The notes under the pieces: generated by a model
Databases searched by the model: none
What the model saw: only the letters and a program-made list of their open reading frames with translations
What the model was told of the DNA's origin: nothing
Position numbers and translations under genes: made by a program
Origin: Desulfobacterales bacterium
Lineage (GTDB): Bacteria; Desulfobacterota; Desulfobacteria; Desulfobacterales; ETH-SRB1
Direction of reading: 5' to 3'
Assembly: GCA_030610995.1 (NCBI GenBank)
Contig: JAUWQO010000002.1
Span: 783 to 64,782, forward strand
DNA length: 64,000 bases
Shown: in pieces, positions 5,283 through 29,596 of the stretch
How the letters are laid out: each line of letters opens with the position of its first letter
Numbering within the stretch: the first letter of the stretch is position 1

Positions 5283-5846
5283 TTATTGATTATGATGTGG
5301 CGCTACCTTCAGGAAAGATTTGACGCTTCGAATTCCTCCTATACTTTTAGCATGAGCAATAATTTTCTCTATCTCCTTATCTGATCCTACAAGACCCACA
5401 AATACCACGTTGCATTGAACAACTGTTACGTCGACATTGGTTGACCAGATATCCCCATCCTTGATTAGTTTGGCTTTAACTTTTGCTTTAATGACAAGAT
5501 TATCCGTTGTACCACATGGATCACCATCTTTCTTTTTGAGAAGATAGGTGGTTACACCTTTTACCCCTTCAACATTCCCGGCAATTTTAATGGATCTGTT
5601 TTTTTGTTTTTCCGCATCATACTCACCGATTAAGTAAACATGGCCATAATAGCAGGCTATATCAATATCAAAAGTCTTAACTACATCGTCTTCAATAAAT
5701 TTTTGCAGGATCGTGGCCTTAATTTTTGTGTCGCCGGCCATTGTGCGCACATTGCGTTCATCCACGGCCGCACCATAAAAGGTAGTACATCCGGAGCCAA
5801 TTACCAGAAGCGCAAAACATAATATTGCCGCAAAATAGTTTTTCAT
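5283..5846 (-). CDS. BON-domain lipoprotein (OsmY/DolP-like)
   Basis: Lipobox VIGSGC and two BON-like repeats (HVYLIGEYDAEKQK..VEGVKGV and VVFVGLVGSDKEIEKIIAHAKSIGGIRSV). Confidence 0.7.
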   Translation of the reverse strand: MKNYFAAILCFALLVIGSGCTTFYGAAVDERNVRTMAGDTKIKATILQKFIEDDVVKTFDIDIACYYGHVYLIGEYDAEKQKNRSIKIAGNVEGVKGVTTYLLKKKDGDPCGTTDNLVIKAKVKAKLIKDGDIWSTNVDVTVVQCNVVFVGLVGSDKEIEKIIAHAKSIGGIRSVKSFLKVAPHHNQ

Positions 5847-6281
5847 ATATTTTTCTCCATTAAATTGGTGATTATATAACAGATAACAAGTAAAATATCA
5901 AGATCCGCTCTGCACTGTAATTTCTGCCTGAAATTACAGCGCTTTTTCACAGCCTTTAATTAACCCTACAGCGATACTTGGCGTGATTTACTGGGTATAT
6001 TACTAATCCGAGCGTTGTTATTTAGACACTAAAATTCCTTAGGCCTTATGAATCGTTCTTTTAATACAAATGAATGTCAAATGATTATGGCCTCATTAGT
6101 AACTCTTTTCCTTCTGTGCGAAAGATATGCCGAATGATCCTTTGTCTGGATACATAAAACCAGTTCACGCTGGTGAAATAAGTTAGCGCTTATGCCCACT
6201 GCCCCATACTATAAGTGTAAGTGACAGTAAGAATCTTGATTCGCTCTTGAAACCATATTCTCCAGGTTTTTTAAAAGCCTC

Positions 6282-6740
6282 TTATTTTTTCTCAGACAGT
6301 GTCAGAGTCCCTTTAGCGATAGGATTAGTTCCCACAAATGCAACGACCTTGAAAAGGAATAAACTTCCGTATTCCTTCTTGATGGTTGCCTCCAGACGGA
6401 GAGTATCTCCCGGTTTGGCGGGGGTAAAGAATTTAATATCTACATTGGCAAGAAAAAGATTCATCTTATCTTTTCCCATGGATATATTTTCTTTTTCACG
6501 TGTAAGCCCGATAAAAAGTCCACTTGTTTGCGCCAGTGCCTCTGAAACAAGAACTCCCGGCATTATTGGCTGTCCTGGAAAATGGCCGGCAAAAAAGGAT
6601 TCATCAGGCAAGAGATCTTTTTCGGCAATGATTTTTTCTCCCGCTTTAAAATTAATAACCCTGTCTACAAACAGAAAGGGTCTTCTGTGCGGAAGTATTT
6701 CTTCAATAACTGGAATGTCGTAGATGTAATTATTGGTCAT
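6282..6740 (-). CDS. fabZ: FabZ-like 3-hydroxyacyl-ACP dehydratase
   Basis: LPHRRPFLFVDRV and GHFPGQPIMPGVLVSEALAQ hotdog dehydratase motifs. 4-nt overlap with the upstream FabD-like gene. Confidence 0.85.
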   Translation of the reverse strand: MTNNYIYDIPVIEEILPHRRPFLFVDRVINFKAGEKIIAEKDLLPDESFFAGHFPGQPIMPGVLVSEALAQTSGLFIGLTREKENISMGKDKMNLFLANVDIKFFTPAKPGDTLRLEATIKKEYGSLFLFKVVAFVGTNPIAKGTLTLSEKK

Positions 6741-7660
6741 GTCAACTTATCTATTACCTCTGACAGCTTCTCATTATTCGTTGTATTCATAATTTCAATG
6801 TTTCTGTCTATCCACCTGACCGTCCTGAAGAGTGTGGCGCCGGGTCCGACTTCAACAAAAAATTTGTTGTTCATGCTTAGTTTTTTAATCAAATCAACCC
6901 ACAAGACTGGGCGACTCAACTGGGCAGCCATTATGTTTTTTAACTCTCTTTCGTCGGGCATGGCCTCCAGAGATAAGTAAGATATAAGAGGTAGTTGAGG
7001 ATCATTCAAGTGGACGGTTCTGAGTTCTCTTAAAAAGCGTGCACCACTCTTTACCATAAATCTAGAATGATAGGCAGTAGCAACAGATATATTGTAGACG
7101 TCCAGAGCCCCTTCGCTGAGAGAGATTTCCATTGCTTTCGTAACGGAAGAACCGATACCGGAAATGACGATCTGACGCGGTGTGTTAATGATGGCAACTT
7201 CAACTTCTCCTGCCTGCCGGCAGATATGTTTTACTTCTTCGAGGGAAAGACCGAAGATAACTGCCATACTTCCTTCTATTTTTTGGCCTTCACTAAGAAG
7301 GATTTCACCTGCCCGTTTCACGATATGAAGGCTACCCGCAAAATCAAAACAACCTGCTGCATAGGCAGCAGAGTAAAAACCGGAACTGTAACCCGAAACC
7401 ACATCGGGAAGAATATTTTGTGTCGTTAGTATGTCAGTCAGAGCACAACTGACCGTGTAAACTGCAAGTTGGGCATTCAGGTCACGATTCAGTTCTTCTT
7501 CCGGACCTTCAAAGCAGAGCCGGCTTAAGGAAAAACCGAGAAGACGGTCGGCATGGTCAAATATTTCCCGGGCTTCAGGATAGGTCTGATACAAGTCAAA
7601 ACCCATGCCAACATGCTGAGATCCCTGGCCGGGGTATAAAAAGATTGGTCGATAGTTCAA
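6737..7660 (-). CDS. FabD-like acyl-carrier-protein S-malonyltransferase
   Basis: FLYPGQGSQHVGMG N-terminus and a GxSxG nucleophile elbow that reads GYSSG instead of the canonical GHSLG; AYHSRFM. Confidence 0.8.
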   Translation of the reverse strand: MNYRPIFLYPGQGSQHVGMGFDLYQTYPEAREIFDHADRLLGFSLSRLCFEGPEEELNRDLNAQLAVYTVSCALTDILTTQNILPDVVSGYSSGFYSAAYAAGCFDFAGSLHIVKRAGEILLSEGQKIEGSMAVIFGLSLEEVKHICRQAGEVEVAIINTPRQIVISGIGSSVTKAMEISLSEGALDVYNISVATAYHSRFMVKSGARFLRELRTVHLNDPQLPLISYLSLEAMPDERELKNIMAAQLSRPVLWVDLIKKLSMNNKFFVEVGPGATLFRTVRWIDRNIEIMNTTNNEKLSEVIDKLT

Positions 7661-7679
7661 ATTAGATTCTCAATATTAA

Positions 7680-8393
7680 CTATTTTCCTGCTTTTTCCGA
7701 TAATTGTTTTAGTCTTTTTTCAACAACAGTTCTAAATTCTTCATCATCTCTTCTTGTATTCAAAGCATTATTATATGCGTCTTTAGCTTTAGAGAATAAT
7801 TGATTTGCATAGTATCGATCTTCGTCGAATTTTCTCGCTTCCGCTTGTGCACAATAAGCGTCACCCAAAACAATAAGATAATCAGCATTATTTGGTGCAT
7901 AATATAAGGCTTTCTTAATCGTTTTTTTTGCTCTATTACTTCTGTTATTAATTAAGAGACTTCTGGCCACGATATAGTAAAGCTCGTGACGGGGCCCGAT
8001 CGTTTTGTGAAGCCTTTTACCTGTTATATAGGGTTGCTTGATAAGCGTCTTATATGAGCTATCCCCCTTTTCTTTCAGGATGGCACATTTTTCAACCTGA
8101 GCTTTGGCTAACAAAATATTCAATTCAAGATTATTTGGGTTAGCATGTGCTTCACCTGTTAACAGCCGAATCACATCGTCATACTTTTTCTCCTTATACA
8201 ATGCTTCTGCCTGAGCGTATATGTCCGGCTGATCAGACGGAGAAGAAGAATTATCAGCAATCAATATTGGCGCTTCGTTTTTCGATGATTGGATGCCATC
8301 CGAATTCTTGACCCACGATAACGCATCATTAAACGGAACGAAAAGTATTAAAGCTAAAAAGAAACAACTGAAAATGCGAATAAGTTTTTTCAT
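7680..8393 (-). CDS. secreted TPR-like repeat protein
   Basis: Signal peptide, then helical repeats (YAQAEALYKEKKYDDVIRLL.., YLIVLGDAYCAQAE..). 4-nt overlap with the LolA-like gene. Confidence 0.5.
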   Translation of the reverse strand: MKKLIRIFSCFFLALILFVPFNDALSWVKNSDGIQSSKNEAPILIADNSSSPSDQPDIYAQAEALYKEKKYDDVIRLLTGEAHANPNNLELNILLAKAQVEKCAILKEKGDSSYKTLIKQPYITGKRLHKTIGPRHELYYIVARSLLINNRSNRAKKTIKKALYYAPNNADYLIVLGDAYCAQAEARKFDEDRYYANQLFSKAKDAYNNALNTRRDDEEFRTVVEKRLKQLSEKAGK

Positions 8394-9106
8394 TGCGGTT
8401 CTCCTTTCTTAGTAAAGGTTTCTTGATCGTCTCCATCTTGTTCAGGAGCGTTTATTTTAAAGATTCCCGCTGGCAGAGGCTTATTAATCGAAGTAAATTC
8501 AAAATGTATAGAAGTATAATCACCTTCCTTTTCCTTAAAACAAATTATTTCCGGGAGCCACTGCGTTGGCCTCACTTCTATTTCGATCATGTCGATTCGT
8601 TTTGCAATCGCCTTAATTTTAGGGATTAATTTCAGATGATAGGCGCCTGAATTAGTCTTTGAAACAAGCTGGATTGAGTATTGTTTCCGAAATTCTTCAA
8701 TGGACTGGCCGATACCGAGATATTTTTTAAGAAAATTATTTCCGAGATATTTTTCTTTAGTTTTTGATATATCAGGGTAATAGATAAGAAGCAACCCGCT
8801 TTTTATAAGCACCATTACAGATGATGGGCTGATAACTTCAAATAGCATTTTACCTTCTGAATCAAAATAGATTATTCCCTCGGAATACAATGGTTCCTTG
8901 AGTAACCTGGTATTTTTGGTTTGCGCAAACTTTGCCGTCAGGGTTTTCAGACTTTCTGCCTTCTCCTTCATGTTTTTTATCACCCAGCACAATTCCGATT
9001 CCGTATTCAAAGTGGTTCCGGATGGAAAAACAGGGCACGGATTCAGAAACAGGATCAGGCCCATGAATATGAGAACAGCATATCTTTTTAAGGGGCTTTT
9101 TTTCAT
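8390..9106 (-). CDS. LolA-like lipoprotein-carrier-fold protein
   Basis: Start moved to MKKSPLK (ATGA overlap with the rSAM stop). Signal peptide; LKTLTAKFAQTKNTRLLKEPLYSEGIIYF resembles the LolA/LolA-like family seen in aryl-polyene-type clusters. Confidence 0.6.
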   Translation of the reverse strand: MKKSPLKRYAVLIFMGLILFLNPCPVFPSGTTLNTESELCWVIKNMKEKAESLKTLTAKFAQTKNTRLLKEPLYSEGIIYFDSEGKMLFEVISPSSVMVLIKSGLLLIYYPDISKTKEKYLGNNFLKKYLGIGQSIEEFRKQYSIQLVSKTNSGAYHLKLIPKIKAIAKRIDMIEIEVRPTQWLPEIICFKEKEGDYTSIHFEFTSINKPLPAGIFKINAPEQDGDDQETFTKKGEPQ

Positions 9107-10386
9107 GACATATTCTTTAGAGTCTTTTTCCATGCCTGCCGAAAGCCGTAATTCTGTACGCCGTAAAATAGACTATTTCTATTGAAAGGGAAGAGTCTTG
9201 TCAGGATTGATCGATGTCCGTACAATCTCCTGTATGCCCAGTTAAAACCTTCCTGCAATTCTTCAGGGGTCATTTTTTTAGGCCTGAATACAACATGATT
9301 CATATCGTACTTTTCCCAGTTCGTATCGATTATCCTGTTTTCTCTCTGCAAAGTTTTGTAGATTCTCGTTCCCGGAAACGGGGTCAAAACTGAAAACAAA
9401 ACCGCTTCTATATGAGTTTTTTCGATAAAACGTATCACATCGGGAAAGACAGATGAATCATCATGATCCGCACCAAAAATGAATGATCCCTGGATGCCGA
9501 TCCCGTGGTCATGAAGTATCCTAATGGCATCCTTATATTCACTTACGCGGTTGGTTGATTTTCCCATTGCCCGCAGATTTTCCTGCGACAGGGATTCAAA
9601 TCCGATAAAAAGCCCCTTGCAGCCGCTCTTCTGAGCCAGATTCAGAAGTTCTCTGTCTTTAACAACACTCAGGGAGGCTTGGCTGAACCACTTGATTTTC
9701 AGGGGGATAAGCGCCCTGAAAAGTTCTTTTGCATAAGATGGCTTTCCCACAATATTGTCATCGACGAAAAAAAGGAATCCCTTTTCCATCTGACCGATTT
9801 CGCTGATGACATTTTCTACCGGCCTTACACGGTAAGTACGGCCGTAAAAGGAGGTAACAGAACAGAATTCACAGTCAAAGGGACACCCGCGAGTCGTTTG
9901 TACAGTATTTGTAAAGAAATATCCTTTCCTGTTTAAAAGGTTTCGTTTCGGGACAGCAAGCTTGTCGAGACTGCAGAAATTCGCGGATTTGTAAAAGTGT
10001 TGCAGGTTACCGCGTTTAAAGTCTGAAAGCACAAGGGGCCAGGTTTCTTCAGCCTCGCCAATGACCACCGAGTCTGCATGGGTTTTGGCTTCATCATTCA
10101 TCATGGTGGGATGAATGCCGCCTAATACAACGGACACCCCTTTCCCCCTGAAAGCGTCGGCAATTTCATATCCCCTTTTAGCCAGAGGTGTCATGATGGA
10201 AATTGCAACGAGATCCGGCAAATCAGAGAAATCGATAGCATCCACATTTTCATCAATGATGGAAATTTTCCACTCTTTACCGGTAAGAGCAGCCAGTATC
10301 GTAAGGGCAAGATAGGGAAAACGGAAGTAAATTTGTCCCCAGAGACTGTTTTCAGGCCATTTGGGTGCGACTATCAGGAGTTTCAT
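9103..10386 (-). CDS. B12-binding-domain radical SAM enzyme (class B), copy 1
   Basis: N-terminal Rossmann-like MKLLIVAPKWPE...GVSVVLGGIHPT and a CPFDCEFC (CxxxCxxC) cluster motif. Translationally coupled on both sides. Confidence 0.85.
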   Translation of the reverse strand: MKLLIVAPKWPENSLWGQIYFRFPYLALTILAALTGKEWKISIIDENVDAIDFSDLPDLVAISIMTPLAKRGYEIADAFRGKGVSVVLGGIHPTMMNDEAKTHADSVVIGEAEETWPLVLSDFKRGNLQHFYKSANFCSLDKLAVPKRNLLNRKGYFFTNTVQTTRGCPFDCEFCSVTSFYGRTYRVRPVENVISEIGQMEKGFLFFVDDNIVGKPSYAKELFRALIPLKIKWFSQASLSVVKDRELLNLAQKSGCKGLFIGFESLSQENLRAMGKSTNRVSEYKDAIRILHDHGIGIQGSFIFGADHDDSSVFPDVIRFIEKTHIEAVLFSVLTPFPGTRIYKTLQRENRIIDTNWEKYDMNHVVFRPKKMTPEELQEGFNWAYRRLYGHRSILTRLFPFNRNSLFYGVQNYGFRQAWKKTLKNMS

Positions 10387-11282
10387 TTCGCCACCATTTC
10401 AGTGACAGGATCAGGACAATACCACTGGTCGGGATGGCGGCGGATATATTTCTCAAATATTCGGGCTGTCTTGCCAAGATTTTCTTCGATGTCATCATCC
10501 AGGTTTCCTTCCGAAGAGATGGGTATGGCTTCTTCCAATACGCCGAAGTATCTGCCGTCCGGTTGTTTTAGAACAAACGAGGGGATGAGGGCCGCCCCTG
10601 ATTTCATGGCCATAATAACAGGTCCCACCGGGAAAATTACCTTCCTGCCGAAGAAGGTAACCGGCCGTCCCCGTCCGAAAAAATCCCTGTCACCACCCAT
10701 GGCTACAATTCCATTGTTGCGGAGGTATCGCATAATTTTGATGCCGGAGAAAGGCGACCCATGATCCATCTCAATCACACTTATTCCCTTGTCTTTTCTC
10801 AGGTGATTAACCAGGGCATTTGTGGCTGTAGAGTTGTGCGCCATGGCAACCATGGCCAGAGGGTAATTTAGAAGTCTTAACATACTCCCACCGATTTCCC
10901 AGTTACCCACATGGGCCGTCAGAAAAATTGCCCCCTTTCCTTTTTCGAGAGCCTTTTTAAGAATGTCTTCTCCCTTAATATAAGCAAAAAACTTTCTGAT
11001 TTTGTTGGGCGGGAGCTGGGGTATTAAGAAGAAATCCACCATATACTGCCCGTAGTTTATGTAAGTCCGGCGGACCGTTTTTCTAATAAAAGGATCATCC
11101 ACTGGTTTATCCAGGACCATGGAAAGATTACATGCTAATCCATTTCGGTCCCTGCGGGAAAACGCATGAACCAGTAACACCACGATTTTCCCCAGCCAGT
11201 GGCAAATCATAGTGGGCAGATACCGGACTAACAGGAAGATTGCATAATAGAAAATCGGACTGTCAAGTTTATGACTTCTCAT
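10383..11282 (-). CDS. LpxL/HtrB-family lysophospholipid or lipid A-type acyltransferase
   Basis: N-terminal TM segment and the HVGNWE motif (FLTAHVGNWEIGG) typical of this family. Confidence 0.75.
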   Translation of the reverse strand: MRSHKLDSPIFYYAIFLLVRYLPTMICHWLGKIVVLLVHAFSRRDRNGLACNLSMVLDKPVDDPFIRKTVRRTYINYGQYMVDFFLIPQLPPNKIRKFFAYIKGEDILKKALEKGKGAIFLTAHVGNWEIGGSMLRLLNYPLAMVAMAHNSTATNALVNHLRKDKGISVIEMDHGSPFSGIKIMRYLRNNGIVAMGGDRDFFGRGRPVTFFGRKVIFPVGPVIMAMKSGAALIPSFVLKQPDGRYFGVLEEAIPISSEGNLDDDIEENLGKTARIFEKYIRRHPDQWYCPDPVTEMVAK

Positions 11283-12068
11283 TTATTCCTTCCGCGCCGC
11301 ATATTCTGTTTGTATTAATGCACCATACTTCAGGTCAAGATTTTTCTCTATAGCGGATTTTACAGCGGCCGTCAGTTCTTCCTTGTTGTTCTCGTCAAAT
11401 GCACACGGATCAATCGCATTACCTACTATAATCTCCATCTTTACTGGCATCAGCGCCAGGGTGCCTTTAGGCAGTGCGAAACGGCCCCCGTTTACGGTTA
11501 CCGGTAAAATGTGGACACCTGATCTAATGGCCATGGTTGCCCCACCCAGGCGGAATCTCTGCAGGCTGCCATTTTTGCTTCTTGTTCCCTCGGGGAAAAT
11601 AATAATAGAAGTTCCTTTTTTAATTTTTTGAGCGGCCGCTTCCAGGCCCATATATGCATTTTTTCGATTATGTCTGTTGATGTATATGTGTCCCATTTTT
11701 TCAAGGGCGTAGCCAAAGACAGGAACTTTTCTTATCTCCTTCTTGACAATCCATCGTATCTGAAGGGGCAGTTTCCCTATCAGAGCCCAGACGTCAAACA
11801 AACTCTGATGATTTGACATGACTATGTAATTACTGCCTTTATCTATCTTTTCCATGCCTCTGATCTTCACCCTCGTACCGGCAAGGAAAATGTTGAGCAG
11901 AGACCAGAACCTGCCTATGTAATGGACTATGTTTCCATTCCTGTCGAACGGGGAAATCATGATGACAATCAGGCCTAATACGAAAGTATTAAATATGAAG
12001 AAAATCAAGTAAAAAGGACGTGTCAAGGGATACACAACCCAGTAAAAAATGACCTTCAAGATTTCCAT
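11283..12068 (-). CDS. PlsC-family 1-acylglycerol-3-phosphate-type O-acyltransferase
   Basis: NHQSLFD (HX4D) and FPEGTRS motifs; N-terminal TM helices. Confidence 0.85.
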   Translation of the reverse strand: MEILKVIFYWVVYPLTRPFYLIFFIFNTFVLGLIVIMISPFDRNGNIVHYIGRFWSLLNIFLAGTRVKIRGMEKIDKGSNYIVMSNHQSLFDVWALIGKLPLQIRWIVKKEIRKVPVFGYALEKMGHIYINRHNRKNAYMGLEAAAQKIKKGTSIIIFPEGTRSKNGSLQRFRLGGATMAIRSGVHILPVTVNGGRFALPKGTLALMPVKMEIIVGNAIDPCAFDENNKEELTAAVKSAIEKNLDLKYGALIQTEYAARKE

Positions 12069-12191: not shown

Positions 12192-12815
12192 ATGTCAAAC
12201 TCAAATTGCAAGACATATCTCGATCTTAAGCAACGAAACGGTAATGTATTGTTGAGCAAGTTTCCTCGAAGGAAACCCGCCCGTGTTTATCTTTCAATCT
12301 GTGTCCTTATCCTGTGTTTGTTCGGATGTTCCACGAAATATACTGTCAAATCTCCCGAATATGATGTTTATGGAGGAGAGGTCAATCAGCATACCCGCTT
12401 GATTCAGGCAGAAAGGAGCAGGATATTTCAGATTCTGACACAGGAAGAAATGCTCAAAAAGATATGCCCGAAAGGGACCATCGTAACTTATGAACCCCCG
12501 TTGCCCTATCAGGCGGGGATGCTGGTCAGGACGAAAATAGATCATATTTTTAAGCTGGAGTGGCGCTCACGGGTAGAGGAAGTAATTACCGACACTAAAA
12601 TCAGGCTTCAGTTCCTGGACGGTTTTTTTGCCGGAGGAACGGAAATCTGGGAATTTGAAAGTATTGGTGAAAGTACTCGAATCACTCAGACGATTATTGT
12701 GAAACCGAAAGGTTTTGTCAGAAAAATGTTCTGGGGTTTAAAGGTCAGGCTTAAACACAATAAAATGGTTGAAACTTTTCTTGACAATTTGCAGAGGGTT
12801 TCCGAAAAGAATTGA
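12192..12815 (+). CDS. SRPBCC (START/polyketide-cyclase-like) lipoprotein
   Basis: Lipobox LCLFGC. The C-terminal 150 aa have an SRPBCC-like pattern (RSRIFQIL...EWRSRVEEV...TEIWEFESIGESTRITQTIIVKPKG). Confidence 0.5.
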   Translation: MSNSNCKTYLDLKQRNGNVLLSKFPRRKPARVYLSICVLILCLFGCSTKYTVKSPEYDVYGGEVNQHTRLIQAERSRIFQILTQEEMLKKICPKGTIVTYEPPLPYQAGMLVRTKIDHIFKLEWRSRVEEVITDTKIRLQFLDGFFAGGTEIWEFESIGESTRITQTIIVKPKGFVRKMFWGLKVRLKHNKMVETFLDNLQRVSEKN

Positions 12816-12846
12816 CCATAATGGTCATAATGGATTGATTGTTCCC

Positions 12847-20604: not shown

Positions 20605-20982
20605 AATGAACTCTTTTCATATTTTTGAAGTGGGTTCAATAGATTTTTGATGGATAGTCGCTGTCACTATTTGTTCCTATTTACAGACTCAGACTTTTCT
20701 ATGCTGATTTCAAAACCAGTCACCCCACCATGATACACGATTTAATCTTGTATTTTTTCGTTGTTTTATATGAAGATATAGATCAGAGATAAATTGATTT
20801 GGTTTTATTGCTTGTAACTTCTTGTTATTTAATGATAATGCAACTTTATTACAGGATAGCATTAAAAACTTAATATTGAATTTTTGTCATTTTAGTTTCT
20901 GTTTTTTGGTTTCTATATTACCCTGGAAAAGTCTGAATATAGTTAAATTGTTGCGATTATTGTCATCCAACGGGATTTTGTG

Positions 20983-21177
20983 CTAATAGGTGGGTTGACA
21001 TATATCCGTTCTTTTGAGATCTTCTTCAGGACCGTCAAAACACACGGTCGACAATTTGAAGTTCAGCATTTCATCCGCTTCGTCAATACCTCCCGGCAAG
21101 CGGTCATACAGATCTTTTCCCATACCCACGTACTGTGAGGCACCCTGCCAGGCAAAAATGAATGCCTGTTTGCTCAT
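20983..21177 (-). pseudogene. fabD: fabD 5' fragment (64 codons), truncated
   Basis: MSKQAFIFAWQGASQYVGMGKDLY...DICQP matches the FabD N-terminus but stops after about 64 aa, and PGQGSQ is degraded to WQGASQ. AT-rich non-coding DNA follows. Confidence 0.7.
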
Positions 21178-21204
21178 ATGCTGTGTTACCTGACTAATAT
21201 TGGA

Positions 21205-22194: not shown

Positions 22195-22657
22195 CGTGCA
22201 GGTTCTTTCTTCAAGAGAGAAGCATGAGCATTAATCTCGCCCATGAGACCTTCGGAACAGAATTTGGCGGTCGTACTGAGACCGTTGTGGAAGGACGGCG
22301 ACCCGAAAGCGCCGTGCAAAATGGTGCAAATGCCATTGACCCCGATAACATGGCACAACCGTACTGCTCATAAGCGAAACGGTTTTTCAGGTCCGTGAGC
22401 GTGCTTTTCGTGACTGCCCCGCCAAGCTTTTTTACGATACCTCTCTGAAAAACCTCATGTTTGATAATGCGCATTATGCTGCCAGCCATACTTTCCGCCA
22501 GTTTAAGAGTGACATTGCCAATGGAATCCTCACAAACGACCAAGTCCTGATTGCCCCGGAACATGTCCGTGCCTTCAACAAAGCCTTGGTAGTCAAAAAA
22601 GGATCTTAAAATGATAAAGGATAAGAACTTGCTTTTTGAAAGCGGGTGAATCCAAAA
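22191..22657 (-). pseudogene. plsX: plsX 3' portion, 5'-truncated and frameshifted
   Basis: DYQGFVEGTDMFRGNQDLVVCEDSIGNVTLK...YEQYG matches the PlsX C-terminal half. After a 1-nt frame change near 22345-22365 it continues as IGVNGICTILHGAFGS.... The N-terminal roughly 200 codons are absent. Confidence 0.7.
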
Positions 22658-23002
22658 TTATTGATTGTGTGTTGAACGCATGTAGATCGCAACATATAGA
22701 AGCCCATCGGTTGCGGCAACAATGGACACTTAGGTACCAAAGGCGAGCCAAGGTGTCAACCGCTATTTTCTACCAATTTCTTACCCAATTTCAGAAAATT
22801 GCAGGTATTTTGGGCAAAGCTCACCATTTGATCCTGGCAGACTGACGGTCGCATGAAGTACACCAAAGCCTTGCCCGGCGGGGATAGTTGAGCATAATCA
22901 ACAAACAAGCAAAAAAATTATGGCGAATACGTTTGATGGGGAACCTTAATCAGGCAATAACAGCCTACTTTTCAACATCCTTTTAAGGTCCCAACTTTAA
23001 TC

Positions 23003-23031
23003 TTGCACAAAAAAAGTTTCTTTGCTATAAT
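23003..23031 (+). promoter_or_regulatory. candidate sigma-70 promoter of the KR-ACP-TE-KS-CLF-rSAM-GT2 operon
   Basis: TTGCAC (23003-23008), a 17-nt spacer and TATAAT (23026-23031), about 50 nt upstream of the ATG at 23080. Confidence 0.4.
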
Positions 23032-23079: not shown

Positions 23080-23820
23080 ATGGAATTTAAGAATAAAAGA
23101 GTGATTATTACTGGAGCCACCAAAGGTTTGGGGAAAGCGATGGCTCTTGCTTTTGCCCGTGAAGGTGCCTGGGTTGTAATTAATTATTCATCTGATGATA
23201 AAAGCGCACTGGAGACAGAATCAGAAATAAAAAATATAGCGCCAAAATCCCTCCTTTTAAAGGCAGATGTTTCGTCCAGGACCGATGTCGAGAAAATGAT
23301 AAGCAATGTCCTGGAACAATGGGAATATGTGGATATTCTGGTCAACAACGCCGGAATTATCAGGGACAAATTGCTTATGTTTCTTAATGAGGAGGATTGG
23401 GATCGGGTGATTGATGTCAACCTGAAAGGCACTTATCTCTGTTCAAGGTCTATTATAAAAACGATGATAGGTAGAAAGTCCGGACGGATTATAAATATCA
23501 CGTCTCCTTCCGCACTTAAAGGCAGAATCTGCCAGACAAATTATTCGGCTTCGAAAGGCGCAATTATCTCCTTTACCAAATCTCTTTCCAGGGAGATGGC
23601 CAGGATCGGCATTACGGTAAATGCTGTTTGCCCGGGGGTCATTTCCACGGCTATGACAGAAAACCTGGATGAGAAAACGAAGAAAGAATTTTTAAATATG
23701 ATCCCAATGGGTAGATTTGGTAATCCGGAAGACATTGCCGAGGCTGTCCTTTTTTTGGCTTCAGAAAAGGCACGATATATTACTGGCCATGTGTTGGTTG
23801 TCGATGGTGGTTTGGGCTAA
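23080..23820 (+). CDS. fabG: FabG-like 3-oxoacyl-ACP reductase (SDR)
   Basis: TGATKGLG, NNAG and YSASK motifs; 246 aa. Confidence 0.85.
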   Translation: MEFKNKRVIITGATKGLGKAMALAFAREGAWVVINYSSDDKSALETESEIKNIAPKSLLLKADVSSRTDVEKMISNVLEQWEYVDILVNNAGIIRDKLLMFLNEEDWDRVIDVNLKGTYLCSRSIIKTMIGRKSGRIINITSPSALKGRICQTNYSASKGAIISFTKSLSREMARIGITVNAVCPGVISTAMTENLDEKTKKEFLNMIPMGRFGNPEDIAEAVLFLASEKARYITGHVLVVDGGLG

Positions 23821-23844: not shown

Positions 23845-24123
23845 GTGAAGGAAATCGTCAACAATTTAGAGGCATTGATCGAATTTCTCAAGAAAATGAT
23901 CATTGATACTCTTAAATTGGAAGATATCACTGTTGAAGGAATCGGGGATGATACCCCTCTTTTCAGGGAAGGACTGGGACTTGATTCCCTGGATGCCCTT
24001 GAACTTGTTGTGGCCATAGAGAAAAATTTCAATGTTATTATTGAAGATGAGAATGTTGGCAAAAAAGCTTTCGAGTCAGTCAGAGCCCTTGCTATATTCA
24101 TACAGGAAGAATATGGAGAATAG
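23845..24123 (+). CDS. dedicated acyl carrier protein (not AcpP-like)
   Basis: 92 aa, GTG start, LGLDSLDALELV phosphopantetheine site. Confidence 0.85.
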   Translation: MKEIVNNLEALIEFLKKMIIDTLKLEDITVEGIGDDTPLFREGLGLDSLDALELVVAIEKNFNVIIEDENVGKKAFESVRALAIFIQEEYGE

Positions 24124-24126
24124 CCC

Positions 24127-24549
24127 ATGCAATGGGTAGAGACAGAGGAGACAGTTCGATTTAACGAGGTAGATCAATGGGGTATGGTCTGGTACGGCCA
24201 CTACATGGCATGGTTTGAAGTTGGCAGAATGTTTTTACTGCGGCGATTCGATCTTTTGCCAAAGCAAATGGTTGAGTTAGGATATATTGCACCTGTAATC
24301 ACTTTAAAATGTGATTTTAAACACCCGGCAGCATGCGGAGACTTGATTATTATCAGGACAACGATAGTCAAGCCGGAAATTGCTGTCTTAACATTTAAAT
24401 TTGAGATATTGCTTAAAGAACAGGGCACTCTTTTGGCCCGGGGAGAGACTACGCAGGTTCTTTTAACAACCGATAATAAAATGATTTATCGACTGACAGG
24501 TGAACTTGAAAAGCGAATAAACAACCTGTTAAATTATTGTCAAAAATAG
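24127..24549 (+). CDS. hotdog-fold (4HBT/YbgC-like) thioesterase
   Basis: VRFNEVDQWGMVWYGHYMAWFEVGR N-terminal motif; 140 aa. Confidence 0.75.
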   Translation: MQWVETEETVRFNEVDQWGMVWYGHYMAWFEVGRMFLLRRFDLLPKQMVELGYIAPVITLKCDFKHPAACGDLIIIRTTIVKPEIAVLTFKFEILLKEQGTLLARGETTQVLLTTDNKMIYRLTGELEKRINNLLNYCQK

Positions 24550-24593: not shown

Positions 24594-25817
24594 ATGAATA
24601 AAGATACATCCAGGCGGGTGGCTGTAACAGGTCTTGGTATAATCACGTCCATCGGGAATTCCGTGCCCGTGTTCAGAGAAGGGCTCTTCAGCGGAAAATG
24701 TGGAATTGAGCCGATATCGCTTTTTGACACCACCGGCTTTTCATGCCATTCTGCCGGGCAGATAAAAAACATAGATTTGGAAGGCTTTTTTAATCCCCGT
24801 GAGATAAAGCGGAATTCCAGGTGTGATCTTTTGGGGCTCATAGCAGCCGACGAGGCCCTGTCAGACTTCGGACTGGATATTGCAAAATACACCAAAGAGA
24901 GAATCGGTGTTGTTCTGGGAGGTGGTGCAGGCGGTATGCTCTCCTGGGAGAAATATCGGCGTGCCTTATGGTTAAAAACCAGACCAAGACCTTCCCTTCT
25001 TCTTCCCACTGCACCCTGCACCTTGACGGATCTTGTTGCCAGTCGCTATAAACTAACCGGATTAAGAGCTACCATTTGTACAGCCTGTTCTTCCAGCGCC
25101 ACGTCGATTGGTTATGGTTTCGACTTGATTCGCTCAGGTGACCAGGATATTGTTGTCACCGGTGGAAGTGAATCTCTTTCAGAATTAACTTTTTCCGGCT
25201 TCCATTCTTTAAGACTAATGGATCCTGAGTATTGCCGTCCCTTTGACAGGCACCGGCGCGGCCTTTCATTAGGGGAGGGGGCTGCAATCCTCGTACTGGA
25301 AGATTATGAGCGTGCTGAAGATAGGAATGCAACCATTTACGCAGAAGTGCTTGGCTATGCAACAAATTCAGATGCCGTACACATTACATCCCCGGATGCC
25401 GAAGGGATGAGCCGAACAATGGTACAAGCTTTAAGAAATGCAAATATCGATGTAGATCAAGTAGACTACATCAATGCCCACGGAACGGCTACCAGGATAA
25501 ACGATAAGATGGAAACCAGGGCTATAAAGAAAGTTTTTCACGATAAGCGCACAGGAGATTTAACAATTAGTTCCACAAAATCCATGGTTGGACACTGTCT
25601 TGGCGCTGCGGGGGCAATCGAGGGAGTAACTACAGTCCTCGCTTTGCATGAGCAGGTTGTTCCACCGACGATACATTTGGAGTTTCCTGATCCGGATTGT
25701 GATCTGGATTATGTGCCTGATTATTCCAGGAAAAAGGAAATTAATTTTGCCATGAGCAACTCGTTTGCATTTGGAGGGAATAATGCATCGGTTGTATTTG
25801 CAAGAAGTAAAGTATAA
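24594..25817 (+). CDS. FabF/FabB-type beta-ketoacyl synthase (active KS)
   Basis: Cys (CTACSSS), His (INAHGTAT) and His (KSMVGHCLGAAG) triad are all present. Confidence 0.9.
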   Translation: MNKDTSRRVAVTGLGIITSIGNSVPVFREGLFSGKCGIEPISLFDTTGFSCHSAGQIKNIDLEGFFNPREIKRNSRCDLLGLIAADEALSDFGLDIAKYTKERIGVVLGGGAGGMLSWEKYRRALWLKTRPRPSLLLPTAPCTLTDLVASRYKLTGLRATICTACSSSATSIGYGFDLIRSGDQDIVVTGGSESLSELTFSGFHSLRLMDPEYCRPFDRHRRGLSLGEGAAILVLEDYERAEDRNATIYAEVLGYATNSDAVHITSPDAEGMSRTMVQALRNANIDVDQVDYINAHGTATRINDKMETRAIKKVFHDKRTGDLTISSTKSMVGHCLGAAGAIEGVTTVLALHEQVVPPTIHLEFPDPDCDLDYVPDYSRKKEINFAMSNSFAFGGNNASVVFARSKV

Positions 25818-25840: not shown

Positions 25841-27061
25841 ATGATCGAAATTGCCGTTACAGGTATAGGTGTCATCAGTCCATTGGGTATAGGTCGGGAA
25901 ACCTTCTGGGAAAGCTGCCGGAAGGCAAAGACGGGAATAAAGAAGATCACATCCTTCGACACTACATCTTTACGATCTAATATAGCCGGCTGGATTGATG
26001 ATTTTAATCCACGGCACTTTCTGCCACCGAAAAGTTATCGGCGAATGGGTAGAGTTTCAAGGATGGCAGTTGCCTCCAGCGTGGAAGCATTGCAAGACAG
26101 CGGACTTGACATGAATAGTATCGACAGGGAAAGAATTGCTGTCATCATGGGAACTTCATACGGAAGCAGTTCTCATATAGAAGATTTTTATATAAGCCTT
26201 CTCGAGGAGGGACCTCGGGGAGCCCATCCTTTTCTTTTCCCGGAAACTGTACCTAATGCCCCTGCAAGCTATATTGCCATGTTTCATGGTATAACAGGTC
26301 CCAATAATACCTTCTGCCAGAACGAACTTTCCGCGGAAAATGCCATAATGTATGCCCGGAATCTCCTGTTGCAAAATCTGGTGGACGTTGTCCTGGTGGG
26401 TGGGGCTGATGAGTTGTCAGCAATGCAGTATACCTGTTATGATGCCGTAGGCGCCCTAAACAAGGTCAGGGCAGAAAAAGGTGAAACTATCAGACCCGAA
26501 CCCGGAAGCGGTCTTGTTCTTGGGGAAGGAGCCGGAATCCTGGTTATGGAAAGAATCGATGTGGCACGTAAGCGAGATGCAAAAATATACGGAGTGCTGA
26601 AATCGGGTGTCATCAGAGGTGGTATAACAGACATTGGGCATTATGAAATTGAAGGCGAGCAGATGGCACGGGCTGTATTTCTTGCTATAGAAGATGCCGG
26701 CATGGATCCATCTGAAATTGATCAGATAGATATTTCTGCCAATTTTACCGGTGAACTTGATAGAATGGAATATAACCAGCTCAGGAAAATCTTCATAGGA
26801 CGAAACAATAATCTGGAAGTGACGCCTTTGAAATATCTTATGGGTGATTTTGGAGGCGCCGGGATCAGCAGGGCGGCGGCTATTCTTCTGAGCATTTATA
26901 ACAAACTGCCTCTTCCAACCGTAAATGCTGAAGCATTAAGAAGTGAAGCCGGAAATTTCCCGGTGTGGAATACTTCCCCGACCGGCAAAACAGATACGGC
27001 CCTGATGACAAGTTCCACGTTTGGCGGTGGAACAAGCAGCCTGATCTTTGCCAGGAAGTAA
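25841..27061 (+). CDS. KS-fold protein lacking the catalytic triad (chain-length-factor-like partner)
   Basis: By manual alignment the Cys position is Glu162 (codon 26324-26326, TFCQNELSAEN). The His motifs read ISANFTGE and KYLMGDFGGAG. Confidence 0.8.
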   Translation: MIEIAVTGIGVISPLGIGRETFWESCRKAKTGIKKITSFDTTSLRSNIAGWIDDFNPRHFLPPKSYRRMGRVSRMAVASSVEALQDSGLDMNSIDRERIAVIMGTSYGSSSHIEDFYISLLEEGPRGAHPFLFPETVPNAPASYIAMFHGITGPNNTFCQNELSAENAIMYARNLLLQNLVDVVLVGGADELSAMQYTCYDAVGALNKVRAEKGETIRPEPGSGLVLGEGAGILVMERIDVARKRDAKIYGVLKSGVIRGGITDIGHYEIEGEQMARAVFLAIEDAGMDPSEIDQIDISANFTGELDRMEYNQLRKIFIGRNNNLEVTPLKYLMGDFGGAGISRAAAILLSIYNKLPLPTVNAEALRSEAGNFPVWNTSPTGKTDTALMTSSTFGGGTSSLIFARK

Positions 27062-27070
27062 TGAATAATT

Positions 27071-28462
27071 ATGAAAGTTCTTCTTGTCTCACCTAATATA
27101 GAGTCATTACCCGATCCCGTTTTCCCACTTGGTTTAGCATACATAACCGCCGCCTTGAAACAGAACGGAACGCAGTGCCAGATTCTGGATCTCTGTTTTG
27201 TCGAAGATTATGAAGCCTCGATTGCATATACCATAAAATCTTTCCAACCCGACATTATTGGCCTGTCGTTAAGAAATATTGATAACGTTAGCTATCCGAA
27301 TTATGTCACATACCTTCCTTTTTACCATCAGGTCGTGCAGGAAATCAGGAAGCAAAGCGAGGCGATCATCGTCGCAGGGGGAAGTGCTTTTGCCCTGTTG
27401 CCTGAATTACTTCTGGAGTATCTCGGTGCAGATTTTGGCATTGCAGGTGAAGGTGAATCCTCCTTTGTCAGGCTTGTTAACGATCTAAAAGGGGGGAAGA
27501 ACATACAGGATTTTCCTGAACCAAAAATTATAAACAATCATTCCGGAATCATTGAAGATCTGGATACCCTTCCACTTCCTGACAGATCAGAATTCGACAA
27601 CGAGGCCTATTTGAAATTTGGAGGAATGGGCAATATTCAGACCAAAAGAGGTTGTCCGTTCAAGTGTATTTACTGTACCTACCCGATCATTGAAGGAAAA
27701 AAGGTAAGATTACGGAGTCCGAAACTTGTCTGTGACGAGATTGAGGACATGCTGAAATACGGGACAGACAATATCTTCTTTGTCGATAACACGTTTAATT
27801 ATCCTACCAGTCATGCCGAAGCAATCTGCCGTGAGATCATTAATCGGAAATTTCCTGTTAAATGGAGTTGTTATGCCAATCCGGGATTTATCACCCCTAA
27901 TCTTATTGAATTGATGCTCGATGCAGGTTGCACGGGAGTGGAATTTGGGAGTGATGCCGCTCATCAGACCATGCTGGTCAATCTTGGGAAAAACTTTACT
28001 GTTGATGATCTCAGGAGTGCCTCGGACATTTGCAGGCAGAAGGGAATGTCATTCTGTCATTCCCTTCTTTTGGGAGGACCGGGCGAGACAATGGAAAGTG
28101 TACATCAAACAGTGAATGCCATACTTGAAATGTCTCCCACTGCCGCTATCTGTATGATTGGTATCAGGGTATTTCCGGGTACCCGGTTATCTTCCATAGC
28201 AGTGGAAGAAGGGACCATTCCGCATGATGCGGATTTTTTACAACCCGTGTTTTACCTATCCCCTGCCATAGAAAATGAAATTCTGCCATTCATCGAACAA
28301 TTTTCAAAAGAAAACCGGAACTGGATATTTCCCGGCATGAACATTAATATGAATGCAAATCTGCAAAGGAAACTGCGTCGTTTCGGAATCAAGGGGCCTT
28401 TGTGGGAGTACATGAAGACCGGAAAGAGGTTGAGGAGTATGCGTGAAAATCTGGGCAAATAA
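27071..28462 (+). CDS. B12-binding-domain radical SAM enzyme (class B), copy 2
   Basis: MKVLLVSPNIESLPDPVFPLGLAYI...AIIVAGGSAF Rossmann-like N-terminus and a CPFKCIYC cluster motif. Confidence 0.85.
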   Translation: MKVLLVSPNIESLPDPVFPLGLAYITAALKQNGTQCQILDLCFVEDYEASIAYTIKSFQPDIIGLSLRNIDNVSYPNYVTYLPFYHQVVQEIRKQSEAIIVAGGSAFALLPELLLEYLGADFGIAGEGESSFVRLVNDLKGGKNIQDFPEPKIINNHSGIIEDLDTLPLPDRSEFDNEAYLKFGGMGNIQTKRGCPFKCIYCTYPIIEGKKVRLRSPKLVCDEIEDMLKYGTDNIFFVDNTFNYPTSHAEAICREIINRKFPVKWSCYANPGFITPNLIELMLDAGCTGVEFGSDAAHQTMLVNLGKNFTVDDLRSASDICRQKGMSFCHSLLLGGPGETMESVHQTVNAILEMSPTAAICMIGIRVFPGTRLSSIAVEEGTIPHDADFLQPVFYLSPAIENEILPFIEQFSKENRNWIFPGMNINMNANLQRKLRRFGIKGPLWEYMKTGKRLRSMRENLGK

Positions 28463-28549
28463 CAGGTTTTTATTATGGCAAGAGGGATGGCGCATAATTT
28501 TTATTTGTGACGTTAGTGAGGAGTTTCATAGCGAAAGAGGTAATAGATA

Positions 28550-29596
28550 ATGTCAAAAATCTGCGTAGTCATTCCAGCATATAATGCAACTCAAACTATA
28601 AGGGATGTGGTCAAGGGATCGTTACAATATGTTTCTGATGTAATTGTTGCAGATGATGGTTCAACGGACAATACGGCTGATATTGCTGCCGAAGCAGGCG
28701 CCAGGGTCATGTTGATCGAGAAGAATTTTGGAAAAGGAAATGCATTGAAGGCGCTTTTCCGGAAGGCTATCGATGAAGGATATGATGCCGTAATAAGTGT
28801 GGATGCCGATGGGCAGCATGATCCTGCTGATATCCCCCGTTTCATTGAATCGCATTATAACTGTCCTGAATCCGTTATTGTTGGTTCCAGGATGCATCAC
28901 ATACATAAGATCCCGAGAGGGCGGTATAATTCGATGCATGTCGCGCGGTTCTATGTCTCTCTCGGTGCAAATCAATTCATAGAGGATACGCAGTGTGGTT
29001 TCAGACTCTATCCTCTCTCAACAGTCAAAAACATTCTTCTGACAACCGATCGATATGTGACGGAAACGGAATTTTTGTTAAAAGCGGGAGATTCGGGCGC
29101 CAAAATACGATCTCTTGAAATCGAAACGATATACAGCAATAATGTAAGCTACTTCAAACCTGTAACAGATATTGTTGCCATATCTTTCTATGTTATTTCT
29201 TATCTTCCCACCAAATGGTTTTTAGAGGCAATATCATCTGACAGGCCGAACACCTATTCACGGAACAATTTTCGAGATCTCATCGGCAAAAACAAAATAT
29301 TAGATATGGCCTTTGAGATATTTTCCGTGCTCACTGTTTTTCTTGTTCCTCCCTTTTTCATGATCCTGCGGCTTTTATTATCTCCTTTTATTAAAAATAA
29401 TTTTGCTTCAACCCGAAAGCTTCACTGCGGTTTCTTTAGAATTCTGATTACGACGTATCTGATTCCGCTCCTCTTGATCATTGCACCTGTAGAGAAGTTT
29501 TTAAACACCTCCGGCGTCAAGGTAAAGCTTGTGAACAGGTTTCTTAAGTATGTCGTTCCGTCTTTTCCGGGGGGACAGGGAAAGTATATACTGTAA
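28550..29596 (+). CDS. family 2 glycosyltransferase with C-terminal membrane domain
   Basis: VVIPAYNA...VADDGSTDNT...SVDADGQHD GT-A motifs, followed by about four TM helices. Confidence 0.8.
   Translation: MSKICVVIPAYNATQTIRDVVKGSLQYVSDVIVADDGSTDNTADIAAEAGARVMLIEKNFGKGNALKALFRKAIDEGYDAVISVDADGQHDPADIPRFIESHYNCPESVIVGSRMHHIHKIPRGRYNSMHVARFYVSLGANQFIEDTQCGFRLYPLSTVKNILLTTDRYVTETEFLLKAGDSGAKIRSLEIETIYSNNVSYFKPVTDIVAISFYVISYLPTKWFLEAISSDRPNTYSRNNFRDLIGKNKILDMAFEIFSVLTVFLVPPFFMILRLLLSPFIKNNFASTRKLHCGFFRILITTYLIPLLLIIAPVEKFLNTSGVKVKLVNRFLKYVVPSFPGGQGKYIL

Follow-up and report, generated by a model that had tools for sequence, protein, structure and literature searches.

Fatty acid synthase (FAS)-type gene clusters that carry B12 radical enzymes were described by Rattray et al. 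in 2009 for Kuenenia, Desulfotalea, Geobacter and Pelobacter (PMC2649909). That study called the synteny of Kuenenia with Desulfotalea psychrophila 'striking', found clusters of a similar kind in Geobacter and Pelobacter, and noted a small cluster, kuste2802-2805, which includes a B12 radical S-adenosylmethionine (SAM) enzyme (rSAM), a FabF and a non-canonical FabB (PMC2649909). In anammox bacteria, Cluster I (kuste3603-3608) holds amxACP, amxFabZ, FabF2, FabFmut, a phytoene-desaturase-like gene and a B12-rSAM in one operon and is found in producers of ladderane (concatenated cyclobutane) lipids only. FabF2 and FabFmut of anammox bacteria form a heterodimer resembling a ketosynthase (KS) with its chain-length factor (CLF), which decarboxylates malonyl-acyl carrier protein (malonyl-ACP) and prefers short chains (bioRxiv 10.64898/2026.05.19.726425). 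Candidate genes expressed heterologously in E. coli gave no ladderanes (PMC4790861), antiSMASH 'ladderane' clusters with 'unknown functions' occur in Desulfobacterota and other non-anammox phyla (PMC9902471), and according to a 2026 review, modification by rSAMs has been proposed for no acyl lipids other than ladderanes and jawsamycin (PMC13459092). How ladderanes are made has yet to be worked out, and genetic manipulation is not possible in any anammox bacterium. Here, we compared with these systems a stretch of 64,000 nucleotides (the window) from the Desulfobacterales bacterium assembly GCA_030610995.1 (contig JAUWQO010000002.1, positions 783 to 64,782, forward strand). We consider that positions 6282-29596 of the window, about 23 kb, probably constitute one dedicated cluster for lipid biosynthesis and export, which is a member of the TIGR04072-containing 'ladderane-type' family of type II FAS/polyketide synthase (PKS)-like clusters. 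The host is an uncultured relative of the sulfate reducers, and the nearest relative contig carries the label Desulfobacteraceae.

Genes were called from a table of open reading frames (ORFs) and from Pfam and NCBIfam profile scans, and the curated cutoffs of the models served as the yardstick. All the genes listed in an earlier first-pass annotation of this DNA were reproduced with their domains and coordinates, although that inventory had overlooked a small membrane protein gene and a 2.3-kb insertion, both described below. The cluster is laid out as four operons in two divergent pairs. The synthase operon, on the plus strand (23080->29596), encodes in order a ketoreductase (KR), an ACP, a thioesterase (TE), a KS, a KS partner that lacks the catalytic triad, a B12-binding rSAM (rSAM2) and a family 2 glycosyltransferase (GT2). 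The family assignment comes from rSAM2 (27071..28462, plus strand; motif CPFKCIYC), which scored 405.4 bits against TIGR04072, above the curated cutoff of 360. This model is named rSAM_ladder_B12 and its product is given as 'lipid biosynthesis B12-binding/radical SAM protein'. The rSAM2 homologues of a Brocadiaceae locus (L053; 428 bits) and of Geobacter argillaceus (L071; 387 bits) also pass it. The rSAM2 gene lies directly downstream of that of the triad-less partner in the window, and beside the KR, TE or CLF gene in most related loci.

Relatives of the cluster are widespread. A protein search with rSAM2 gave more than 6000 relatives at E <= 1e-20, the best 120 being 63-95% identical, whereas an exact look-up of the window's own rSAM2 gave no record. 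In a two-motif scan of one genome per GTDB species a relative was encoded in at least 521 (521 of the 600 candidate stretches listed). The best 80 loci came from Desulfobacterales, Syntrophales, Geobacter relatives, Desulfobulbia, Nitrospirota, Dissulfurispiraceae and Brocadiaceae/Planctomycetia, and they include the cultured Oryzomonas japonica (L047) and G. argillaceus. Co-conservation was assessed by tblastn of 24 window proteins against all loci, with cross-hits between paralogues resolved. Counts out of 37 refer to GTDB genome loci in which 8 kb or more of sequence flanks the rSAM2 homologue on either side; the second B12-rSAM of the window (rSAM1, encoded in the left operon) was counted there at 35% identity or more. 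A separate metagenome scan gave an rSAM1-anchored set, of which 10 loci were used for counts.

At the centre of the set stand the KS and its partner. The active-type KS (24594..25817, plus strand) has the triad Cys165-His296-His334; it scored 432 bits with the fabF model, below the equivalog cutoff of 494, and 416 bits with PRK07314, above the cutoff of 387, and its solved-structure matches were 9s5h_B (best, 330 bits), FabF (326) and Iga11 (249). In the CLF-like partner (25841..27061, plus strand; second-best solved-structure match 9s5h_C), the three triad positions are occupied by E162, S299 and D336. The Cys-His-His triad is kept in 65 of 66 KS homologues, all three residues are missing in 58 of 59 partner homologues (O. 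japonica keeps His at the third position), and the KS is the direct neighbour of the partner in 42 of 45 loci. The pairing of the two genes and the conserved dead triad are thus observed directly, and an active KS gene beside a catalytically dead homologue is also the arrangement of highly reducing type II PKS and KS-CLF systems, such as Iga11/Iga12 of ishigamide and amxFabF2/amxFabFmut of anammox bacteria. The Cys position of the CLF is occupied by Glu in the window and by Val or Thr in amxFabFmut, while actinorhodin-type CLFs have Gln. In the CLF alignment (L004-L161) the replacing residue is clade-specific: Glu, Asp or His in Desulfobacterales/Syntrophales, where a 'QN[ED/H]' motif is conserved among the CLFs of the window's clade, Phe together with Arg at the second His position in the Geobacter-type clade, and variable in Planctomycetota. 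For the Geobacter-type partner, Phe at the first triad position and Arg at the third agree exactly with Table 2 of Rattray et al. for G. sulfurreducens NP_951518 (Phe163, Arg333), and Kuste2805 also has Phe163 (PMC2649909).

Around this core, the rest of the set recurs in the related loci. The KS was present in 33/37 loci, the CLF-like partner and the KR in 31/37 each, the ACP in 30/37, the TE in 27/37, the GT2 in 25/37, mostly adjoining the NodB-type deacetylase gene, the deacetylase itself and the FabZ-type dehydratase (DH) in 23/37 each, the MMPL exporter in 20/37 and the FabD-like transacylase in 17/37. Orthologues of rSAM1 (39-53% identity) lay within 10 kb of rSAM2 in 22/37, which is an undercount for arrangements like that of the window because rSAM1 there is 17 kb from rSAM2. 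The LpxL-type acyltransferase was found in 16 of the 37 rSAM2-flanking loci and in all 10 rSAM1-anchored ones. Also, the left half of the cluster (FabZ, FabD, TPR, LolA, rSAM1, LpxL, PlsC, SRPBCC, methyltransferase, alkaline phosphatase (AP)-family and MMPL genes) is kept in metagenome relatives with 60-87% rSAM1 identity. Gene order, on the other hand, changes completely from the window to the Geobacter relatives and again to the Brocadiaceae. In G. argillaceus it reads NodB-GT2-...-LpxL-ACP-rSAM1-...-FabD-TE-rSAM2-KR-KS-CLF-FabZ-LolA-like-...-MMPL; in Brocadiaceae L053 it starts with ATP-grasp, NodB, KS, CLF, methyltransferase, KS, a short KS-like gene, a FlxY/PaaK-like ligase and a SPASM rSAM, and continues with the TIGR04072 rSAM, ACP, FabZ, methyltransferase, MMPL, an amine-oxidase/phytoene-desaturase-like gene and GT2. 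The set nonetheless stays together, and since it is held across phyla despite this reshuffling, we regard it as a single functional unit; this is our main evidence. Accordingly, the earlier proposal of a single dedicated lipid cluster is supported: in different orders and phyla, the KS/CLF core keeps the company of the rSAMs, the deacetylase, the GT2, the acyltransferase and the exporter. Loss of that association for the rSAM, deacetylase or ATP-grasp genes had been named as what would speak against the proposal, and the loci do not show it; the ATP-grasp gene is lineage-restricted, yet it recurs at 49-54% identity in anammox and Dissulfurispiraceae loci. What is conserved as one unit is a module of KS/CLF and the TIGR04072 rSAM, a second B12-rSAM, and a head-group and export set of glycolipid type.

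From these genes, a route to an exported lipid can be proposed. The FabD-like transacylase would load malonate onto the cluster's own ACP. By analogy with the anammox homologues, the KS and its triad-less partner would form a KS/CLF heterodimer that sets the chain length and primes itself through decarboxylation of malonyl-ACP (bioRxiv 10.64898/2026.05.19.726425), and with such self-priming an aryl or acyl starter ligase would not be needed. The FabG-like KR and the FabZ-like DH would process every round, and because an enoyl reductase gene was not found in the cluster, the chain may be unsaturated or a housekeeping reductase may be borrowed. Unactivated carbons would be tailored by rSAM1 and rSAM2. 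An ArnC/DPMS-like GT2 and the NodB-type deacetylase would make an amino-sugar lipid head group, to which the ATP-grasp and the phosphodiesterase-like enzyme may contribute in this lineage. The LpxL/PatA- and PlsC-type acyltransferases, helped by the thioesterase, would shift the chain from the ACP to a glycolipid or lysolipid anchor, and the HpnN-like MMPL exporter and the LolA-like carrier would bring the product to the outer membrane.

For rSAM2, C-methylation of an ACP-bound intermediate appears to be the single most likely chemistry, since its nearest named relatives are cobalamin-dependent methyltransferases: the next-best models were BzaD (222 bits), TsrM (199) and PhpK (147), and the best solved structure was TsrM 6wte (160 bits). 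rSAM1 (9103..10386, minus strand; PF02310 and PF04055, motif CPFDCEFC) is further from characterised enzymes; its best named models were BchE (127 bits), HpnR (98) and HpnJ (86), all far under their cutoffs, and its best solved-structure match was an unnamed rSAM, 9ccb (58 bits). Most often, the gene directly beside it encodes the LpxL-type acyltransferase, the ACP or the FabD-like protein (29/82 each), and we infer that its substrate may be acyl-ACP or the assembled lipid. Clusters differ in how many B12-rSAM paralogues they have, from one to four; in O. japonica there are three genes like rSAM1 besides rSAM2 and a SPASM rSAM.

A comparable combination of enzymes is known for hopanoids, in which HpnI, HpnK, HpnJ and HpnN likewise join a glycosyltransferase, a de-N-acetylase, a cobalamin rSAM and an HpnN-like exporter for a membrane lipid. 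This is an analogy only: the hopanoid models scored far under their cutoffs (HpnN 270 against 752; HpnJ 86 and 101 against 578 for the two rSAMs; HpnR weak for both), no hopanoid genes are present in the window, and the predicted lipid is acyl-based, not triterpenoid. The deacetylase of the window is of NodB type and not of HpnK type. Considering this parallel of glycosyltransferase, deacetylase, B12-rSAM and HpnN-like pump, there is a possibility that one of the two rSAMs acts on the head group and not on the chain.

Several observations weigh against a single dedicated lipid pathway or against the chemistry proposed for it. Every biochemical step is an inference because no product is known for any member of the family. 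The likeness of rSAM2 to methyltransferases is at family level only (its 222 bits stand against a BzaD cutoff of 450), and class B rSAMs also carry out cyclisations and ring contractions (BchE, HpnJ). The deacetylase nearly reaches TIGR03006, 'XrtA-system polysaccharide deacetylase' (269.5 bits, cutoff 276), and would fit an exopolysaccharide role too. The ATP-grasp, PlsC, SRPBCC and AP-family genes and the LolA-like gene of the window type are judged to be accessory and not core because they are lineage-restricted. Finally, some genomes carry much less: L001 has CLF and rSAM2 alone, and L013, L027 and L028 have KS, CLF and rSAMs alone. From these reduced loci it follows that the rSAM module can work without head-group or export genes nearby; together with the varying number of rSAMs they fit a tailoring role, with head-group and export genes not obligatorily adjacent.

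The reduced loci are of interest in themselves. L001 (Desulfobacterales CP070789, a chromosome of 3.4 Mb) encodes at 8748-11383 a triad-less partner 63% identical and a TIGR04072 rSAM 68% identical to those of the window, and neither an active KS nor another cluster gene was found there within 10 kb. The pair of dead KS and TIGR04072 rSAM may therefore be the minimal conserved module. The Nitrospirota loci L027 and L028 hold KS-CLF and three B12-rSAMs and no other gene of the set.

These points bear on the reading that there is no single pathway at all, only three sets of genes lying next to one another: a module of FAS paralogues, acyltransferases for phospholipid or lipid A, and a deacetylase, ATP-grasp and GT2 of exopolysaccharide type. 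The near match of the deacetylase to the XrtA-system model, the restricted occurrence of the ATP-grasp, PlsC and AP-family genes, and the genomes with KS/CLF/rSAM alone would suit it. However, chance neighbourhood does not sit well with the presence of the deacetylase in 23/37 and the GT2 in 25/37 loci within 10 kb of rSAM2, across phyla and despite total reshuffling, or with the divergent export/head-group and synthase operons, which share a common control region of 169 bp in the 95%-identical relatives. On balance we hold mere juxtaposition to be unlikely.

Among described clusters, those closest to a single dedicated pathway in the window are the candidate 'ladderane' FAS-II clusters of anammox bacteria and their counterparts in Deltaproteobacteria, which share the TIGR04072 rSAM, the KS with its triad-less partner and a dedicated ACP. 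The gene content of Brocadiaceae L053 closely resembles that of kuste3335-3352 as described (PMC2649909), and FabZ, KR, SAM methyltransferase, NodB, ATP-grasp, GT2 and MMPL are shared and syntenic between L053 and the window. Our own synteny comparison covered anammox and Geobacter-type loci; the synteny with Desulfotalea is that of the 2009 study (PMC2649909). The differences run in both directions. On the one hand, the anammox version has a PaaK/FlxY-like ligase, a SPASM rSAM, extra KS copies and a phytoene-desaturase-like oxidoreductase without counterpart in the window ORFs scanned; the ligase, the SPASM rSAM and the desaturase-like gene, which belong to the Desulfotalea version too, are variable among clusters, and we therefore take them as accessory and not defining. 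On the other hand, the window has in addition rSAM1 with LpxL- and PlsC-type acyltransferases, a LolA-like protein, an SRPBCC lipoprotein and an AP-family enzyme; of these, rSAM1 and the LpxL-type gene are common to Geobacter relatives and some Planctomycetia. Compared by gene content with Cluster I (kuste3603-3608), the window has no desaturase-like gene that we could find, and its FabZ lies in another operon. The host, unlike the ladderane producers, is not an anammox bacterium. We therefore regard the cluster as a Desulfobacterales-type member, assigned from its sequence, of a widespread TIGR04072 family recognised since 2009 and not as a new combination; the window adds one more uncultured example and not a new principle. 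For the non-anammox clusters we found no published product assignment, the literature returned being bioinformatic or single-protein structural work only, in agreement with the first-pass annotation, which knew of no characterised product for this combination.

Rattray et al. proposed that the clusters shared by Kuenenia and Desulfotalea serve to make polyunsaturated fatty acids or hydrocarbons without oxygen (PMC2649909). D. psychrophila, whose clusters are syntenic, holds unusual polyunsaturated hydrocarbons, and the missing enoyl reductase in the present cluster would agree with such a route. However, the phytoene-desaturase-like oxidoreductases that motivated the proposal were not found in the window, though there is one in L053; genes for a head group, acyl transfer and outer-membrane export are not expected for a hydrocarbon; and the link between hydrocarbons and clusters is itself an untested proposal. 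For this cluster we give the hydrocarbon route a low probability, as low as that of mere juxtaposition, and keep to a lipid with a head group.

The first-pass annotation had described the locus as a novel 'aryl-polyene-like' combination. The shared logic with aryl-polyene (APE) and flexirubin clusters is considerable: KS/CLF, an own ACP, KR, DH, hotdog TE, lysophospholipid acyltransferase (LPLAT)-type acyltransferases, GT2, a LolA-like protein and an MMPL exporter. However, PRK09185 (288 against a cutoff of 407), PRK09116 (287 against 470), PRK06519 (57 against 320) and PRK09184 (65 against 70), models that we take to represent the APE-cluster proteins of E. coli, and the ApeI-like model (23.8 against 28.5) all stayed below cutoff with the window proteins. 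The same held for the flexirubin models FlxB (269 against 340) and LolA2_flexi (71.5 against 125); of the resorcinol genes DarA and DarB, DarB gave weak cross-hits to FabH and KS only, and FlxY found no match among the window proteins in the NCBIfam scans. The KS is closest to FabF (432 bits), the window has a deacetylase, an ATP-grasp and a pair of cobalamin rSAMs in addition, and aryl starter activation was not found among the ORFs scanned. To our knowledge, no characterised APE cluster includes a B12-rSAM. Because every APE and flexirubin model stayed under its curated cutoff, while that of TIGR04072 was passed and the set is syntenic with the clusters of 2009, the description as a novel APE-like combination is not supported: the cluster resembles APE clusters in outline and, by its model scores, is not a member of their family.

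A true APE or flexirubin pigment cluster with its aryl-starter ligase encoded elsewhere in the genome would explain the shared vocabulary and the weak FlxB and LolA2_flexi matches, and the anammox variant L053 does carry a FlxY-like ligase (440 bits, cutoff 520). Against such a pigment stand the model scores, the nearness of the KS to FabF, and the ORFs scanned in the 64-kb window, among which no enoyl reductase, AMP-ligase (aryl/acyl-CoA ligase), ammonia-lyase or phytoene-desaturase-like gene was found; we consider it very unlikely. The absence of a starter gene, as earlier noted, thus stands for ammonia-lyase and ligase, but an intact fabH does lie inside the cluster, within the lineage-specific insertion treated below. 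Least probable of all is that the cluster makes ladderanes outside the anammox bacteria: its TIGR04072 rSAM and KS/CLF pair are homologous to those of the anammox candidate clusters, but the cited papers call ladderanes unique to anammox bacteria, none were detected in D. psychrophila despite its syntenic clusters, and two genes of the anammox clusters, for the phytoene-desaturase-like enzyme and for the SPASM rSAM, were not found among the window ORFs scanned.

An extension of the dedicated lipid pathway deserves mention, although we consider it doubtful: the TIGR04072 rSAM, rSAM1 or both might go beyond methylation and form C-C bonds on an unsaturated chain bound to the ACP, closing rings or cross-linking it, so that non-anammox anaerobes would make a class of carbocyclic or heavily branched outer-membrane glycolipids not described so far. 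If this were true, such chemistry would be an ancestor of the ladderane pathway or would shed light on its mechanism, and the Geobacter relatives with the same module, which are cultivable (isolates L047 and L071), would offer an access that is missing in the anammox field. A product from a cultured Geobacter relative would give a function to two large orphan rSAM families, and its identification would reveal a new bacterial envelope lipid and constrain models of ladderane assembly.

Of the remaining products of the synthase operon, the KR (23080..23820, plus strand) is a FabG-type 3-oxoacyl-ACP reductase that passed TIGR01830 (302 bits, cutoff 298), and it is the protein with the FlxB_rubin_SDR match of 269 bits. 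The dedicated ACP of 92 amino acids (23845..24123, plus strand; PF00550 43 bits, DSL serine) is the one that matched PRK09184 below cutoff; it is distinct from housekeeping AcpP (TIGR00517, 39.5 bits against a cutoff of 70.45) and is 43-47% identical to the ACPs of anammox and Planctomycetia clusters. Its best solved-structure match was 9ls6_A with 67 bits, ordinary AcpPs giving about 29 bits. The hotdog TE (24127..24549, plus strand) is of 4HBT/YbgC type (PF03061, PF13279). The GT2 (28550..29596, plus strand; PF00535 83 bits) matched AglJ, PpgS and ArnC in NCBIfam, all below cutoffs, and its closest families and solved structures are polyprenyl-phosphate glycosyltransferases (AglJ, PpgS, ArnC, DPMS), ArnC and DPMS being the best structures. 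In L007, L008, L010 and L011 the GT2 is only 42-47% identical, while other cluster proteins are at about 65-80%; this gap suggests that a paralogous glycosyltransferase may have been swapped in, possibly for another head-group sugar.

The left operon, on the minus strand (12068->6282), encodes in order a PlsC-type acyltransferase, an LpxL-type acyltransferase, rSAM1, a LolA-like protein, a TPR protein, a FabD-like and a FabZ-type protein. Its tight coupling had been pointed out before and is evident from four overlaps (6737/6740, 8390/8393, 9103/9133 and 10383/10386) and from the abutment at 11282/11283. The PlsC-type lysolipid acyltransferase (11283..12068; HQSLFD) had PF01553 at 103 bits and the TIGR00530 domain at 117 bits (cutoff 103), and it is kept in Desulfobacterales-type relatives and in L024. 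The LpxL/HtrB/PatA-type acyltransferase (10383..11282; PF03279 127 bits) has HVGNWE at residue 124, and its best NCBIfam model was the phosphatidylinositol mannoside (PIM) acyltransferase PRK07920 (124 bits, below cutoff). The LolA-like periplasmic lipid carrier (8390..9133) had PF03548 at 36 bits and is the protein with the LolA2_flexi match; divergent LolA-like ORFs are also found in the Geobacter locus L071 and in L024. The secreted TPR protein (7680..8393) gave weak TPR matches and is kept in the close relatives L090, L092 and L102 only. The FabD-like malonyl-CoA:ACP transacylase (6737..7660; PF00698 119 bits) is divergent, with GYSSG replacing GHSxG and a TIGR00128 score of 234 bits under the cutoff of 261. 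The 3-hydroxyacyl-ACP dehydratase (6282..6740; PF07977 95 bits) passed the FabZ model NF000582 (123 bits, cutoff 113). In the solved-structure search, the entries that we take to be anammox FabZ were no closer to it than ordinary FabZ, and for none of the proteins did such searches point to a specific function.

Between these two operons lies the other divergent pair. The middle plus-strand operon encodes an SRPBCC-like lipoprotein, a zinc-ribbon methyltransferase and an alkaline-phosphatase-family enzyme. The lipoprotein (12192..12815; lipobox LFGC) matched PF03364 weakly with 20 bits, and copies 45-88% identical occur in L086, L090, L092, L093, L096, L098, L099 and L103. The class I SAM methyltransferase (12769..13728; PF13489 84 bits) has an N-terminal zinc ribbon of two CxxC motifs (CILC...CLNC). 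Its orthologues, with 37-52% identity, are in the clusters of Brocadiaceae (L053), Dissulfurispiraceae (L059) and Planctomycetia (L067), and the solved-structure search returned generic class I methyltransferases only, none named as an anammox enzyme. The phosphodiesterase-like enzyme of the alkaline phosphatase superfamily (13689..15398; PF01663 75.5 bits) is kept in closer relatives only, at 90% identity in L090 and about 37% in L092, L096 and L102. The middle minus-strand operon encodes the ATP-grasp, NodB+DUF3473, Sm_multidrug_ex and HpnN-like MMPL proteins. The ATP-grasp ligase (19426..20604; PF15632, PF02655) is CPS-like, of PRK12767 type, and was present in 11/37 loci, among them those of Brocadiaceae (L053, 54%) and Dissulfurispiraceae (L059, 49%); in tblastn of the compared loci none was found in Geobacter-type clusters. 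The carbohydrate de-N-acetylase (18593..19429; PF01522 and PF11959) usually has the GT2 or ATP-grasp gene as its direct neighbour. The small Sm_multidrug_ex membrane protein (18055..18558; PF06695 42.6 bits), the gene overlooked before, is 100% identical in L002 and was present in 8/37 loci. The MMPL/RND-type lipid exporter (15417..17951) had PF03176 at 109 bits and is the protein with the match to HpnN (TIGR03480).

The gap of 2476 bp between the ATP-grasp and KR genes contains an insertion of 2298 bp (20684..22981), recognised by alignment to relatives that are 90-95% identical. Three gene remnants or genes lie on the minus strand within it: an N-terminal fabD fragment of the first 64 codons (20983-21177), a fabH that is intact (21205-22194; 383 bits against a cutoff of 249) and the C-terminal part of plsX, with a frameshift (22191-22564). 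The insertion has no counterpart in L002, L003 and L005, where the ATP-grasp-KR spacing is 169 bp, and its point of entry is exactly the shared divergent promoter region of the export/head-group and synthase operons. The same piece recurs with 98.5% identity on an independent small contig, L164, and an identical FabH is encoded on three further contigs; the insertion is therefore probably real and not an assembly chimera. It is a lineage-specific slice of a housekeeping FAS locus and lies outside the conserved pathway. FabH was considered as a conserved starter enzyme and rejected, since it sits, with gene fragments on its flanks, in an insertion missing from relatives of 90-95% identity; it co-occurs in only 1/37 related loci.

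A promoter-like site, TGCACA-N16-TATAAT with an extended -10 TG (23004-23031, plus strand), precedes the synthase operon. The near-consensus sequence noted ahead of 23080 is thus present, with a match of 10/12 and conservation in the 95%-identical relative L002, but it is weak evidence for a promoter because AT-rich DNA like this has many such sites (52 found against 37 expected). An Rfam scan of the whole window gave two tRNAs only and no cobalamin or other riboswitch.

As for the borders, a BON lipoprotein gene (5283-5846) had been placed at the left edge of the cluster. It was excluded, as 0/37 rSAM2-flanking and 0/10 rSAM1-anchored loci carry BON, and an 87%-identical relative that reaches 7 kb past FabZ is also without it. 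Since BON is not co-conserved, the true left border is at about 6282. A DUF4410 lipoprotein to the right of the cluster was likewise rejected as a member, its co-occurrence being limited to one distant locus. Upstream of the cluster, 2232-5846 encodes a DUF6340/TPR protein, an FlgT_N-like protein and the BON lipoprotein, all predicted envelope proteins and not conserved with the cluster, and the remainder of the 64-kb window carries housekeeping genes such as those for histidine kinases, Trk, BirA and CarB.

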